The notes under the pieces are model-generated. The model was not told where the DNA came from, ran no database searches, and saw only the letters and a list, made by a program, of their open reading frames with translations. DNA of 63,748 nt, counting the filler, from Neolecta irregularis DAH-3 (lineage: Eukaryota): assembly GCA_001929475.1 (NCBI GenBank). It is 7 parts of 7 records of this genome, joined end to end, with 100 filler letters (N's around TTAATTAATTAA, not from the genome) between each part and the next. Parts side by side here need not be neighbours in the genome. Positions count along the whole stretch, not along the records: positions 21,370 to 34,764 come from LXFE01000878.1; 6 more parts are not named here. The stretch is one strand, 5' to 3'. Shown piece after piece: positions 14,538-49,529 of this stretch (within the stretch, counting starts at the first letter, position 1; each line of letters begins with the position of its first letter). Position numbers and translations under genes: made by a program.

Positions 14538-14637
14538 NNNNNNNNNNNNNNNNNNNNNNNNNNNNNNNNNNNNNNNNNNNNTTAATTAATTAANNNNNNN
14601 NNNNNNNNNNNNNNNNNNNNNNNNNNNNNNNNNNNNN
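14538..14637. other. Artificial assembly spacer (also 18095-18194, 21270-21369, 34765-34864, 39214-39313, 49430-49529)
   Basis: Each is 100 nt: N-run + TTAATTAATTAA (stops in all six frames) + N-run. Confidence 0.98.
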
Positions 14638-18094: not shown

Positions 18095-18223
18095 NNNNNN
18101 NNNNNNNNNNNNNNNNNNNNNNNNNNNNNNNNNNNNNNTTAATTAATTAANNNNNNNNNNNNNNNNNNNNNNNNNNNNNNNNNNNNNNNNNNNNTTTTTT
18201 AAAAAGTCGTCTGACCTCTATAG

Positions 18224-21043: not shown

Positions 21044-21369
21044 GTTTTGGAAAACGTTGTTTTCTTGGATCTTTCGCTATATGGCATTTTGGTGGATGGT
21101 GGGGTTTTTGTATATTATTTTTTCTAGACACAAAGCAGTATTATTCCGGGTATTGCCAAATGCAACCGTCCTTTCATCTCATATCCTCATATCACCCCCA
21201 GAGTTTACTTCTCGAGTCTCATACTGTGGGATATTACATGTCAAGACTCCATTGAATGGGTAGTCGTACNNNNNNNNNNNNNNNNNNNNNNNNNNNNNNN
21301 NNNNNNNNNNNNNTTAATTAATTAANNNNNNNNNNNNNNNNNNNNNNNNNNNNNNNNNNNNNNNNNNNN

Positions 21370-31412: not shown

Positions 31413-31888
31413 TCAAAGTGAAGCGGGACTTTTGATAGATTTGACTTTGGTGACTTTTACTGAATCAAAATCTGCCTTCTCTTGGGCCTCTGCTTCAAGT
31501 TCTTTAATGATAGGCGTCAAATACCGAATGTCCTAATTAATTCAGACAAGACTTATCGGATATATACGTCTTCAGGTTTAGTCCATTCGTTTCTCGGTAG
31601 AATTTGATGAACACAGGCAAGTTGGTGGCCTCGTTTTAACCGGTAGAACCGATCATAAGTTTCTCTCTCAGACAACCTTCCAAGTGCCTTTTGTGCGATA
31701 GAGTGTTCTTCCATCAATAAGTCGTCGTATCTAGCATCAGAGTTTTTTGATTAGTAAGAATACTTGAGACCCATTTGTCGGTATCCCGACAATTGGACAA
31801 ATCTCTCAGCGGCGGGCCGGAGCATTGCAACAAGCCTTGGAAAGGATTTCTTAAGAGAGGGGTAGAGGGAATAACCAAGAATCGACAT
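31413..31888 (-). CDS. QCR7: Cytochrome bc1 complex subunit 7 (2 introns)
   Basis: FVQLSGYRQMGLK|YDDLLMEEHSIAQKALGRLSERETYDRFYRLKRGHQL...ILPRNEWTKPED|DIRYLTPIIKE. Confidence 0.95.
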
Positions 31889-32081
31889 GTTGGGGTTAGA
31901 TGGGTGGCGAGAAAGCTGAGGTTCTTTGCCCATGAGCGATAAATTAGATCACAAGATATATCCAAGCAATTTGTAATTTTCAATATCAATGTAATACCCA
32001 GTGAATGGAGCTTGTTCTATGTATCATGTGAGCTAAAACTGGGAATCATAGTCTAACCTACTGAAATCGAACCAACTTGAA

Positions 32082-33334
32082 ATGTCATCTTTTGGAACGC
32101 TTTTTAAAGTGACTACGTATGGCGAATCGCACTGTAAATCAGTAGGCTGTATAGTTGAAAATGTGCCGCCTGGTCTAGATATAACCGAAGCGGATATTCA
32201 ACCGCAACTTTCTCGCCGACGACCGGGGCAATCCGATTTAACCACTGCAGTATTATTTTCGCTTGATGGAAGGAAAGCTGACTGTCCAGCGAGATGAAAA
32301 AGATCGAGTGGAGATTCAATCTGGAACTGAATTTGGGGTTACTTTGGGAACGCCTATTGGAATGGTTATTAAAAACCAGGATCAGCGACCTCACGATTAC
32401 TCTGAAATGGACGATTATCCGCGTCCCAGTCATGCCGATTTGACTTATTTGCTTAAATATGGAGTTAAAGCGTCTAGCGGGGGAGGACGATCGTCTGCCC
32501 GAGAAACCATAGGTTATAAATTATTTACACGAGGCTTATAAACAGGTCGGGTAGCAGCTGGAGCCATTGCCGAAAAATATTTGTATCAAGCTTTTGGCAT
32601 TGAAATCGTAGGTTTTGTGTCGAGTGTGGGAACGGTGCATTTGGAGAATGTGACTGATTTACTGAATACACTGTCTAGAGTGCAAGTTGATCAGTATCCA
32701 ACCCGATGTCCGGATACGTGCACCTCTGAGAAAATGACACGGAGGATTCTTGAAGCGAAAGCGAATCAAGATTCGATTGGAGGAACTGTAACTTGTGTGA
32801 TTCGAAACGCGCCGAGTGGACTGGGCGAACCGTGTTTTGACAAGCTTGAAGCGAAACTAGCACATGCGATGCTTTCTATTCCTGCAACAAAAGCATTTGA
32901 AATAGGATCCGGGTTTGGAGGATGTCAATTTCCGGGATCGCAACATAACGATGTATATCAAATGTGAAAAGGGGTTGACTACTAGGTATATCAAATGGGT
33001 GAAAAGGGGTTGACTACTTTTACGAATAATTCTGGCGGGGTTCAAGGGGGGATATCCAATGGCGAGCACATTTACTTCAAGGTAGGGTTTAAATCGCCTG
33101 CGACGATTGGACTTGCTCAGAAGACTGCGAGTTATGCAGGTGTGCAAGGGGAACTGAAAGCCAAGGGACGCCATGATCCGTGCGTTGTGCCCAGGGCGGT
33201 GCCGATAGTGGAAGCAATGGCCGCTATGGTTATAATGGAGTATGTTATTTTCTGGCTGGGCTGATATCAGCGCGGTTCTTTTACAAAAGGCAAGACAAAG
33301 TGCTCGAGGGTTGTTGCCTCTAAATCAGCTGTGA
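32082..33334 (+). CDS. ARO2: Chorismate synthase (4 introns)
   Basis: [102 protein letters not shown]. Confidence 0.98.
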
Positions 33335-33338
33335 AGCA

Positions 33339-33715
33339 GATAATATCTATCAGCGAATATGATAATATCTATCAGCGAATATGATAATATCTATCAGCGA
33401 ATTGATAATATCTATCAGCGAATATGATAAATATCTAACAGCTGTGAATATGTATGAAACAGATATATACAAATATCGACAATATAAAAGTGAGATTAAA
33501 ATATCGCCAATATAGAAGTGAGATTAAAATATCGACAATATAGAAGTGAGATTAAAATATCGACAATATAGAAGTGAGATTAAAATATCGACAATACTTG
33601 AGATTAAAATATCCGCCAATATTCCAACCAACGAAATGATGTCAAATGAATATATCAACGAAATAAAGATGTCAAATGAGTATATCAACGAAATAAAGAT
33701 GTCAAATGAAAGTGT
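33339..33715. repeat. Three adjacent AT-rich minisatellites between convergent ARO2 and kelch genes
   Basis: 22-bp GATAATATCTATCAGCGAATAT x4+; 28-bp GAGATTAAAATATCGACAATATAGAAGT x4+; 30-bp CAACGAAATAAAGATGTCAAATGAGTATAT x~3. Confidence 0.92.
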
Positions 33716-33793
33716 AATGAAACGAATGTGATATCAACCTAATGGAGAGGAGAACGAGTACAAGAAGGATGGACGACATGTTGCATCGATTAA

Positions 33794-34764
33794 TTAATCA
33801 GGATTGACAACTCTGAGGTTCAGTTTGGGGCCAGTCCAGTAAGTGCTGTGCTGGACCATTCTGCCCGAGACTTTGCTTTCGGCATAGGCGTCGTCTGTAG
33901 TTTGGTCCTCGGGGGTCGTTTGCTCGCGGATATGGCGGAAGAGGTCTGGAGGGAGATATGTTTCTGGGGGAGGTTCCCAGGAGGGGTTATCGTGCCATGA
34001 CAGTGTGCGTTTTCGAGAACGGAGACGGCGGCGGCGGTAGAGGAGGATGCCGATGGCGCTGGACAGGACGAGGAGGGAGGGAAACGAGATGGAGAGGGCT
34101 TTGAGTGTGGAGGGGGAGATTGAGGGGGAGGGCGGCGACGAAGACGAGGGGGAGGAGGACGAAGACGAGGGGGAGGGTGAGGACGAGGGGGAGGACGAAG
34201 ACGAGGGGGAGGACGAAGACGAGGAGGACGAGGAGGACGAAGACGAGGAGGACGAAGAGGACGAAGACGAAGACGGCGAGTACTGGTCAACCCAGCGCAT
34301 CTGCACCGTGTCGAGGATCCACACGCGCTGGTTGAACGTGTTGGGCGAGTCCTTGCCAAAGAACAGCATCATGGCGCCCGAGGCAAAGACGGCCGAGTGG
34401 CCCGTGAGGTTTCCCGGCGCCGCGCCGGCCGGGCGCAGCACCGAGTACGACCACGACGCGAGATCGAGGCGCACCACGTCCGGCGGCACAAAGTCGTTGT
34501 AGAGCGAGCCGCCGTACACCAGCACCGAGTTGTCCGCCGCCGCAACCGCCGAGTGCCCGACCCTGCTCGCAGGCACGGCGCCCGTCACCGTCTGGAACGC
34601 CCACGTCGCCGTCCGCGGGTCGAACAGCGCCGCCTGCCGCAGGTCGATGTACGCCGCCGCCGCCGCAGAGCCGCCGAGCAGCAGATACCGCCCGTCCGCC
34701 AGCAGCGTCGACGAAAAGTACGCCGCGCCCACCGGCAGCGGCGTGCTGCCCGCCATGTCCGCCC
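33794..34764 (-). CDS. Kelch-repeat type I membrane protein with Ser-rich stalk; 5' end lost in gap
   Basis: YLLLGG, PASRVGHSAV...VLVYGG, PGNLTGHSAV...MLFFG kelch repeats; poly-Ser (TCx repeats ~34135-34275); TM then RRRRLR; tail ends LRVVNPD. Confidence 0.85.
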
Positions 34765-34882
34765 NNNNNNNNNNNNNNNNNNNNNNNNNNNNNNNNNNNN
34801 NNNNNNNNTTAATTAATTAANNNNNNNNNNNNNNNNNNNNNNNNNNNNNNNNNNNNNNNNNNNNACTTGCTTACTTGTTTAG

Positions 34883-39213: not shown

Positions 39214-39643
39214 NNNNNNNNNNNNNNNNNNNNNNNNNNNNNNNNNNNNNNNNNNNNTTAATTAATTAANNNNNNNNNNNNNNNNNNNNNNNNNNNNNNN
39301 NNNNNNNNNNNNNCCCTTCCCCCGTTCCGCGCCTAAAATTGGAATTTAAAGAAAAGCCACATTTTATGAAATTTGGGTCGCATCAAACGCACCATAAATG
39401 TATATTTACAAAATATTTTCTACTACATTTGCGTATTGTGTCTGTAATGTTATAGAACATATTCAAGCAAAACATAAATGCATATAGGTCATATTCCACT
39501 GATATACCTTTGTTTCTTTAATACTGCTGTCGGTGAAGTCACGCCCAGTTCCCATGGCTCCGTTAATACTTACTGGACGATTTCTACTTCGACACTATCA
39601 CACCACTTGTAATATCTCATTTAGTCTGAGACATCACGCAAAC

Positions 39644-48549: not shown

Positions 48550-49529
48550 TTTTAAGAAAAGGAATCAATGTCCTGTCAGAAAACATTTGGATTGGGTGAT
48601 CGGTTTGTAGAAAAGTAGAAAATGTCAAGGTGCCTTTTGTAAACCATATTCTTATCTTGACAAGTTGTAACACCAGTATATCTTTTCACAATTTTTCCTA
48701 TGAGCGCTCCTCAATGAAAATATCCACTTTATTTCAACAATAACTGAATAAATACTACTTCTGAAATGAAAGATTACATTGTTTATCAGAATGAGGGATG
48801 CAGCCTTGATGAACCCCAGGAATTTCATCGATACTCAGGTCCGAATGGATCTAACACCGGGGTCAAAATAATTGCTGGTAGTATTGGATCGAGTGACACC
48901 ACATAATTCAACAGGCTTTGATGTGGATGAGACAATGACCTGCAAAGGTTAGTGAGTACTCACAAGAAGCGCAACGCACTATTCGCAGTGCTGTTGATTG
49001 ATAGCCTCACGCAACCCTGCAGATGCGAATGCTGGATATATCGCTAAGAATAGTGGGAAACAGGTTTATCCTGGCTGACGGTGAAGTGTCAAAGAGGGGC
49101 TGTGATCGTGAAGATCTTTAGGGCGATATTTGCATCAGACAATGAATAAGCATATGGAGACTGATGAGGTGAGTATGAAGTAGTATGACATTGATACTGT
49201 TGCTAGCAATGGGATACATGGGTATTAGGGCCGGGGTGTGCAGAAATTGGTGAACGTGGGTCAGATAGCGTGCATGCGGTAACCCTCACGACTGGGAAGC
49301 GGGGGATAGAGGGTAGAACAGGACAGAGGAAGCGAGGGAACAATATCTATATAAATGTACATGGCAGCAGGTCAGCAAAAGACTCTGGCAAGGCCCTGGT
49401 TGAGGCGGTGGAGGGCGCGGGACTCTTCCNNNNNNNNNNNNNNNNNNNNNNNNNNNNNNNNNNNNNNNNNNNNTTAATTAATTAANNNNNNNNNNNNNNN
49501 NNNNNNNNNNNNNNNNNNNNNNNNNNNNN

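Follow-up and report, generated by a model that had tools for sequence, protein, structure and literature searches.

An intron probably derived from an exonic tandem duplication in the chorismate synthase gene (ARO2) of Neolecta irregularis

The third intron of the chorismate synthase gene (ARO2) of Neolecta irregularis DAH-3 is a head-to-tail duplicate of the coding sequence that follows it, and a recent tandem duplication within an ARO2 exon has probably become this intron. Intron birth by tandem duplication had been proposed for this locus in an earlier sequence-only reading, and it is now supported by the identity of the two copies, by splicing in a contig of RNA origin, and by the family-like character of the copy that is retained. 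Intron gain has been widely inferred, while its source sequence is seldom identified; at ARO2, the parent stands intact beside the intronic copy without a single substitution, conservation of the enzyme reveals which copy is ancestral, and the transcript contig reveals the precise removal of the other. All positions given below count along the window, i.e., the whole stretch of DNA that was analysed (63,748 nucleotides, filler included).

The gene is chorismate synthase, and its product is deposited as protein P0001, to which exon 3 is 100% identical; the Pfam family PF01264 matches P0001 at E 2.3e-131, with a score of 437.8 bits (gathering cut-off 27) and with all but the last of its 327 profile positions aligned (1-326). 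The spliced gene model consists of the following features:

32082..33334, plus strand: ARO2 coding region, with ATG at 32082, stop codon at 33332-33334, five exons and a product of 371 aa
32082-32249, 32290-32512, 32546-32952, 32986-33239 and 33271-33334, plus strand: ARO2 exons of the spliced model
32250-32289, plus strand: ARO2 intron 1, predicted, 40 nt, the sole GT..AG choice that keeps frame and homology, in agreement with P0001
32513-32545, plus strand: ARO2 intron 2, 33 nt, with a joint in X2 (the contig of RNA origin, described below) and GT..AG ends
32953-32985, plus strand: ARO2 intron 3, a phase-0 intron of 33 nt that separates Asp266 from Val267, with a joint in X2; the segment is omitted from P0001
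33240-33270, plus strand: ARO2 intron 4, 31 nt, with a joint in X2 and GT..AG ends

The spliced model equals P0001 over residues 1-350, after which the two tails differ. In the deposited P0001 (358 aa), intron 4 has been translated as coding sequence, and the last 8 residues are non-homologous; intron 4 is spliced out in X2, and the C-terminal tail of the 371-aa model matches the family consensus. Intron 1 is not shown by the X2 contig, which has an antisense splice pattern there. Removal of intron 3 gives an open homologous frame, and the model aligns with 13 fungal homologs across the joint. The position of intron 2 is common to many other fungi, whose homologous open reading frames (ORFs) begin at P0001 residues 131-133 with junk before them; that of intron 4 is common to the environmental fungal clade of P0069, whose ORFs read through at the same codon.

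The tandem copy and the signals that it carries can be laid out as follows:

32953-32985, plus strand: upstream copy, equal to intron 3, a head-to-tail duplicate of 32986-33018
32986-33018, plus strand: downstream retained exonic copy, codons 267-277, identical to the intron at all aligned bases
32953-32958, plus strand: 5' splice site GTATAT, a copy of Val-Tyr codons
32965-32967, plus strand: in-frame TGA made by a 2-nt GG loss, from in-frame translation of the intron
32975-32979, plus strand: branch-like TTGAC, a copy of Leu-Thr codons, from a motif scan
32983-32985, plus strand: second in-frame stop, TAG, from in-frame translation of the intron
32984-32985, plus strand: junctional AG serving as 3' splice site, without a counterpart after the downstream copy (TT)

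The near-perfect 33-nt tandem copy that had been noticed at 32953-32985 and 32986-33018 proves to be identical throughout its 31 aligned bases, 12 at the start and 19 at the end. As had also been read, and as the alignment of both copies bears out, the sole differences are a missing GG (32998-32999 of the downstream copy), which leaves a single 2-nt gap in the upstream one, and the AG with which the upstream copy ends, TT coming after the downstream copy instead. The in-frame TGA claimed for the first copy is likewise present, and the TAG adds a second stop. Tandem Repeats Finder (TRF) describes 32953-33018 with a period of 35, 1.9 copies, 93% matches and a score of 116, and the local alignment of intron 3 to its downstream 120 nt scores 28, where 2000 shuffles reach 7.2 +/- 1.4 with a maximum of 15. 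Minisatellite arrays aside, this is the sole two-copy repeat of 30-40 nt across the whole window, and among the RNA-supported local introns only intron 3 resembles its flank, the other 7 scoring 9 or less. No dispersed copies of intron 3 were found on either strand of the 63.7-kb window at up to 6 edits; intron 3 is therefore placed, on the evidence of this window, outside the introner-like or transposon-derived class, which is defined by multiple dispersed copies. A second candidate for an intron-exon copy at about 38008 (score 18) was rejected as a degenerate direct repeat in non-coding sequence, and a comparison of 31500-33800 with Rfam was negative up to an E of 1.

Two sequencing runs of one study, X1 and X2, contain the stretch 31500-33335. 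X1 is probably the run behind the source assembly, and its contig was taken from an independent Logan assembly; the DNA support comes from one sample, probably the assembly's own source. This contig is colinear with the window over 31500-33335, has no gaps, differs from the window at 2 sites, and holds both copies at a mean depth of 393, so that a second assembler reproduces the duplication that had been suspected of a possible assembly origin. At the same time, the longest exact match common to both copies is 19 bases at most, which implies that a 31-mer graph can neither create nor merge them.

The other run, X2, is labelled 'DNA?', and it bears a different sample and organism label. Within 1.8 kb, its contig of 1938 nt leaves out eight segments of 31-41 nt, of which three have GT..AG and five CT..AC ends, and because of these eight intron-like joints it is judged to be cDNA and not genomic; fruiting-body DNA and RNA were both sequenced according to the genome paper (PMC5309816). 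One of the eight joints connects 32952 with 32986; it omits exactly 33 nt, and on its shorter side 254 letters match. As 12 letters fit either side of the joint, 13 placements are equivalent, and GT..AG ends occur only at 32953-32985, where GT at 32953-32954 and AG at 32984-32985 form the ends of a GT-AG spliceosomal intron. The exact removal of 32953-32985 that a transcript check had been asked to reveal is thus found, at contig level, in cDNA-like sequence of another sample label. X2 is identical to the window over its 845 nt of ARO2 exons, 32394 to 33335, and its 4 differing sites all lie in 31893-32105. Removal of exactly one copy is seen in an RNA-derived contig, a contig-level observation without information on the share of retained transcripts, and the transcript of an unduplicated allele would look identical to the spliced product.

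Several neighbouring features were observed alongside. X2 carries five minus-strand introns (31533-31567, 31731-31763, 32017-32057, 32245-32282 and 32354-32394), the first two of which belong to a QCR7-like gene of the UCR_14kD type (Pfam PF02271); the other three are located upstream of the QCR7-like coding start, inside ARO2 exons 1-2, and they indicate that the 5' half of ARO2 is overlapped by spliced antisense RNA or a long leader. The minus-strand intron at 32245-32282 (38 nt, RNA-supported) nearly coincides with the predicted plus-strand ARO2 intron 1 at 32250-32289 (40 nt), and the stretch 32245-32289 would then be intron on both strands. Further downstream, an open frame on the minus strand at 33794-34816 (340 aa) is richer in G+C; in it, a long tract rich in Ser and in Ser/Pro precedes a hydrophobic stretch and basic residues, and its 5' end is interrupted by an N run. 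The filler itself consists of six pairs of 44 N with 12 bases between, amounting to 528 N, in a regular spacing that looks more like masking or scaffolding than like ordinary gaps:

14538-14637, 18095-18194, 21270-21369, 34765-34864, 39214-39313 and 49430-49529: filler N-run pairs

The eight RNA-supported introns in 31500-33335 measure 31, 33, 33, 33, 35, 38, 41 and 41 nt, and intron 3 falls within this local class of 31-41 nt. GT and YAG alone are invariant among them, the yTrAy motif being missing from 3 of the 8, in line with the suggested tolerance of weakly marked introns of about 33 nt. By comparison, the mean intron of Cryptococcus neoformans is given as 63 bp and termed 'relatively short' (PMC8476143), and the local Neolecta introns lie far below that mean; judging by title and abstract, the length of Neolecta introns is apparently unaddressed in the Neolecta intron literature among the matches listed.

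The origin claimed for the donor, from Val-Tyr codons, and for the branch-like TTGAC, from Leu-Thr codons, agrees with the sequence, and TTGAC may be the branch used in intron 3, its candidate branch A lying at 32978, 7 nt before the end of the intron, although such a motif is weak evidence where 3 of 8 local introns do without yTrAy. GTATAT also begins the RNA-supported minus-strand intron 31533-31567, and a yTGAy placed 6-8 nt from the end recurs in introns 31731-31763 and 33240-33270 as well as in the predicted intron 32250-32289. In the exon copy, the next AG after TTGAC comes 32 nt further on, and the lack of a nearer AG would account for the downstream copy staying exon despite its having the same GT and TTGAC. 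AG is the sole intron signal missing from the parent sequence, and it is placed exactly at the duplication junction; in a genome with introns of 31-41 nt, exon and intron are here separated by one AG dinucleotide.

To decide which copy is ancestral, the retained copy was compared with the family through an alignment with 13 fungal homologs, in which it sits in the loop between HND and TNxSGG, together with length counts on 107 homologs and residue counts on 119. The loop has 12 residues in Neolecta and 13 in 92 of the 107 homologs. At +2 after HND, Neolecta has Tyr, as do 3 of the 119 homologs, the other 116 having Phe, while Leu at -4 (105 homologs) and Thr at -2 (115 homologs) are both kept in the Neolecta retained copy. 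The family aromatic, Leu, Thr and loop length in the retained copy point to the downstream copy as the old coding sequence and to the upstream copy as derived. HNDVY does replace the usual HNDPF, as had been remarked, and Val at +1 is found in 0 of the 119 homologs; the GTA codon at this place supplies the GT. The explanation attached to that remark, in which an older intron had partly overwritten the exon, is disfavoured, since the exon copy aligns with the family loop at the +2 aromatic, Leu -4 and Thr -2. The GT of Val267 may instead be read as an unusual precondition that let the site become an intron, or else it is possibly the outcome of a later exchange between the copies.

Whether the intron position is new was approached through a proxy, namely unspliced ORFs on environmental contigs of distant fungi, which run into junk at intron boundaries. 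Among 321 collected homologs, 79 are ORFs with read-through junk beside an internal boundary (an alignment-based count); 68 of these are unbroken across residues 258-276, 8 more go past HND with homologous residues, and the remaining 3 end before HND at residues 246, 261 and 262. A break directly after HND therefore occurs in 0 of the 76 unspliced distant-fungal ORFs that reach HND, with one doubtful case, P0223. This was rejected as an intron at the Neolecta site, because its tail starts with residues of its relatives (L, then VTG) before turning to junk, and we read it as a probable frameshift or a break a few codons downstream. Breaks do recur in these ORFs where Neolecta has intron 2 (residues 131-133) and intron 4, and also at residues 286 and 298. 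The clade of P0069, itself 72% identical to a partial Modicella reniformis protein, has intron positions 2 and 4 as Neolecta does and is uninterrupted at HND.

Some breaks come close to the site: two Pezizomycotina-like ORFs (P0236 and P0240) stop at or beside the Ser262 codon, residue 261 is where ORFs P0227 and P0251 break off, and Asn280 is the last residue before the end of two proteins. With such introns close by in other fungi, intron 3 may stand for the replacement of an older neighbouring intron and not for a net gain. No close relatives of Neolecta were present in the protein collection searched, where the best non-self matches had 70% identity across the entire query among the longer proteins and, among short ORFs, 79% across 73% of it or 60-68% at full coverage; no second Neolecta chorismate synthase appeared among the best 120 matches. 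A metagenome scan for orthologous loci with P0001 as the query confirmed no locus, and a scan with the alignment A1 kept 80 loci, each one uninterrupted tblastn match, which are intron-free and uninformative on fungal gene structure. Taken on these distant fungi, the comparison favours a gain in the Neolecta lineage.

Three other explanations have to be weighed against an exonic duplication that turned intron. An older intron at Asp266/Val267 could have had its body overwritten by a copy of the downstream exon, which would make the event a replacement of content and not a gain; the route would be a 35-nt duplication including the old terminal AG, followed by loss of the old body. Such a unit, starting with the old AG, fits the TRF period of 35 nt and explains the junctional AG without filler bases, and an inherited intron would be no surprise, given that about 74% of Neolecta introns are inherited by the estimate in PMC7940399 and that ARO2 intron positions 2 and 4 are common to other fungi. 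However, not one of the 76 HND-reaching unspliced ORFs breaks there, nor do those of the clade with introns 2 and 4 in common with Neolecta; the route would call for an exact deletion of the old intron besides the duplication and the GG loss; and no unrelated intron sequence is left. The overwriting of an older intron is accordingly held to be unlikely.

Somewhat less probable again is that the duplication constitutes an unspliced null allele, polymorphic or somatic, and that the RNA of X2 came from an allele or individual without it, so that nothing was spliced. The other sample and organism label of X2 and its 4 differences from the window in 31893-32105 speak for this, as do the 2 sites at which X1 differs from the window, which imply more than one haplotype in the material, and the identity that an unduplicated transcript would have with the spliced product. 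Yet the skipped segment has GT..AG ends, the 33 nt of two neighbouring introns, and a yTGAy at the usual distance; the two changes not found in the parent are just those making a 3' splice site and stop codons; X2 matches the window without a difference in 845 nt of ARO2 exons; the 393x contig contains the duplicated allele only; and the best 120 matches included no second Neolecta chorismate synthase. An artefact of the assembly or the library might be suspected behind any tandem repeat of two copies in a draft whose N50 is 16 kb (PMC5309816), but the same copies emerge gapless from a second assembler at a mean depth of 393, k-mer graphs would neither create nor merge copies with two 2-nt differences and no more than 19 exact shared bases, and the deposited annotation already treats the segment as an intron, all of which makes an artefact very hard to credit.

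On the preferred explanation, exonic duplication, a piece of ARO2 coding sequence of about 33 nt (codons 267-277, at the start of the loop after HND) would have been duplicated head to tail in the Neolecta lineage, at a site that presumably had no intron before, and the upstream copy would now be removed as a spliceosomal intron. Its 5' GT, within GTATAT, would descend from former Val-Tyr codons and its branch-like TTGAC from former Leu-Thr codons, whereas the 3' AG would be two extra bases at the duplication junction and not a gift of an AGGT proto-splice site. Splicing of 32953-32985 would restore the pre-duplication frame exactly and leave the protein unchanged; a retained copy would, through TGA and TAG, end translation at residue 270 and cost the enzyme its conserved C-terminal third, and the transcripts concerned would presumably be degraded. 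As a plain duplication does not yield the AG, the history must include one further event or more. The AG may have appeared with the duplication or shortly afterwards, the GG loss following later, and the most economical course would comprise two events, i.e., a duplication with two junction bases that was spliceable at once, and a later 2-nt loss that would have brought the intron to 33 nt and added the TGA. Other orders can be envisaged, such as one in which an in-frame 33-nt duplication was tolerated in the length-variable loop before the AG was gained.

That none of the 31 aligned bases is substituted suggests that the event is young or that the copies have been homogenised. A bolder and distinctly more tentative form of the exonic-duplication explanation is that the intron is very young, was made in one step by a 33-nt duplication plus two junction bases spliceable at once, and is possibly still polymorphic. 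If this one-step form were true, the Neolecta spliceosome would define introns of 31-41 nt by GT, a loose yTrAy and the next YAG, and small tandem duplications starting at GT could regularly supply the lineage-specific introns of the Neolecta genome, which by one estimate account for about a quarter of the total. The locus would moreover be a natural minimal pair, with identical 31-nt bodies of which one is intron and the other exon, and it would help to establish how an ultra-short intron is defined. Three minisatellite arrays follow immediately after the ARO2 stop, at 33339-33710, with units of 22, 28 and 30 nt in 4.7, 4.5 and 2.4 copies, and they indicate that tandem duplication of 20-35-nt units has occurred repeatedly within 400 nt of the intron.

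No paper joining 'Neolecta' and 'chorismate' was found in the literature searched, the Neolecta literature on intron gain comprises, by its titles and abstracts, genome-wide surveys or unrelated work, and the main text of the genome paper (PMC5309816) does not use the word 'intron'. The sequence-only reading had called tandem duplication a long-proposed mechanism with few clear natural cases; according to PMC4974935 and PMC3629103, few gained introns have had their source identified, e.g., 2 of 62 in fission yeasts. In the strict Rogers model as presented in PMC4974935, an AGGT in the duplicated unit supplies both splice sites, and Hellsten et al. 2011 re-enacted the tandem duplication of ATP2A1 (PMC3265369). 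As in that model and in ATP2A1, the ARO2 case involves an exonic tandem duplicate of which one copy's worth is spliced out, leaving mRNA and protein as before. Unlike in the model, however, the ARO2 unit has GT as its first bases, GAT closes the exon before it, and two junction bases make up the AG, so that intron 3 lies outside the strict AGGT scheme, its AG standing at the junction only, and inside the broad duplication class, as its source is identified. The ATP2A1 event is described as ancient, whereas the ARO2 copies are still identical at 31 of 31 bases.

The closest parallels in kinship are the fission-yeast introns in SPOG_01682 and SOCG_00815, which consist of 24-nt exonic tandem repeats (Zhu and Niu 2013, PMC3629103). 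Like Neolecta, these belong to Taphrinomycotina; according to that report, the introns resemble neighbouring exon repeats, spliced ESTs are available (one EST disagreed with the annotation), and the non-identity of the repeat units argues against assembly error, as it does at ARO2. In contrast, the fission-yeast cases present multi-copy 24-nt repeats, an AGGC proto-splice site and a repeat-containing gene, while ARO2 presents a single 33-nt duplication in a conserved single-domain enzyme, with the intron equal to one repeat unit. The potato RdRp intron, whose gain is traced to a tandem duplication that spanned the boundary of an intron and an exon (Ma et al. 2016, PMC4974935), is similar in that a recent tandem duplication led to a new intron with a donor from former exon sequence, and dissimilar in that no pre-existing intron sequence is involved at ARO2; Ma et al. 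argue that the model must permit different sources of splice signals (PMC4974935).

For Drosophila, novel intron positions have been ascribed to tandem exon duplication, and nearby intron pairs have been described (Lehmann et al. 2010, PMC2891723). That account shares with ARO2 a short-intron genome, a duplicated coding sequence of which one copy was intronized, and novel positions within tens of bases of the positions of other lineages; the Drosophila duplication was inferred from proto-splice-site scores, whereas the identity of intron and exon in ARO2 can be seen in the sequence itself. Introner-like elements and other dispersed elements that generate introns (cited in PMC3629103 and PMC4974935) are also a source of lineage-specific fungal introns, but they are multi-copy and dispersed, and ARO2 intron 3 is single in the 63.7-kb window with the adjacent exon as its source. 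ARO2 intron 3 differs from the known cases in combining an exon-only source with a junctional AG, and it is probably a rare, clean natural example of an intron from duplicated exon sequence.
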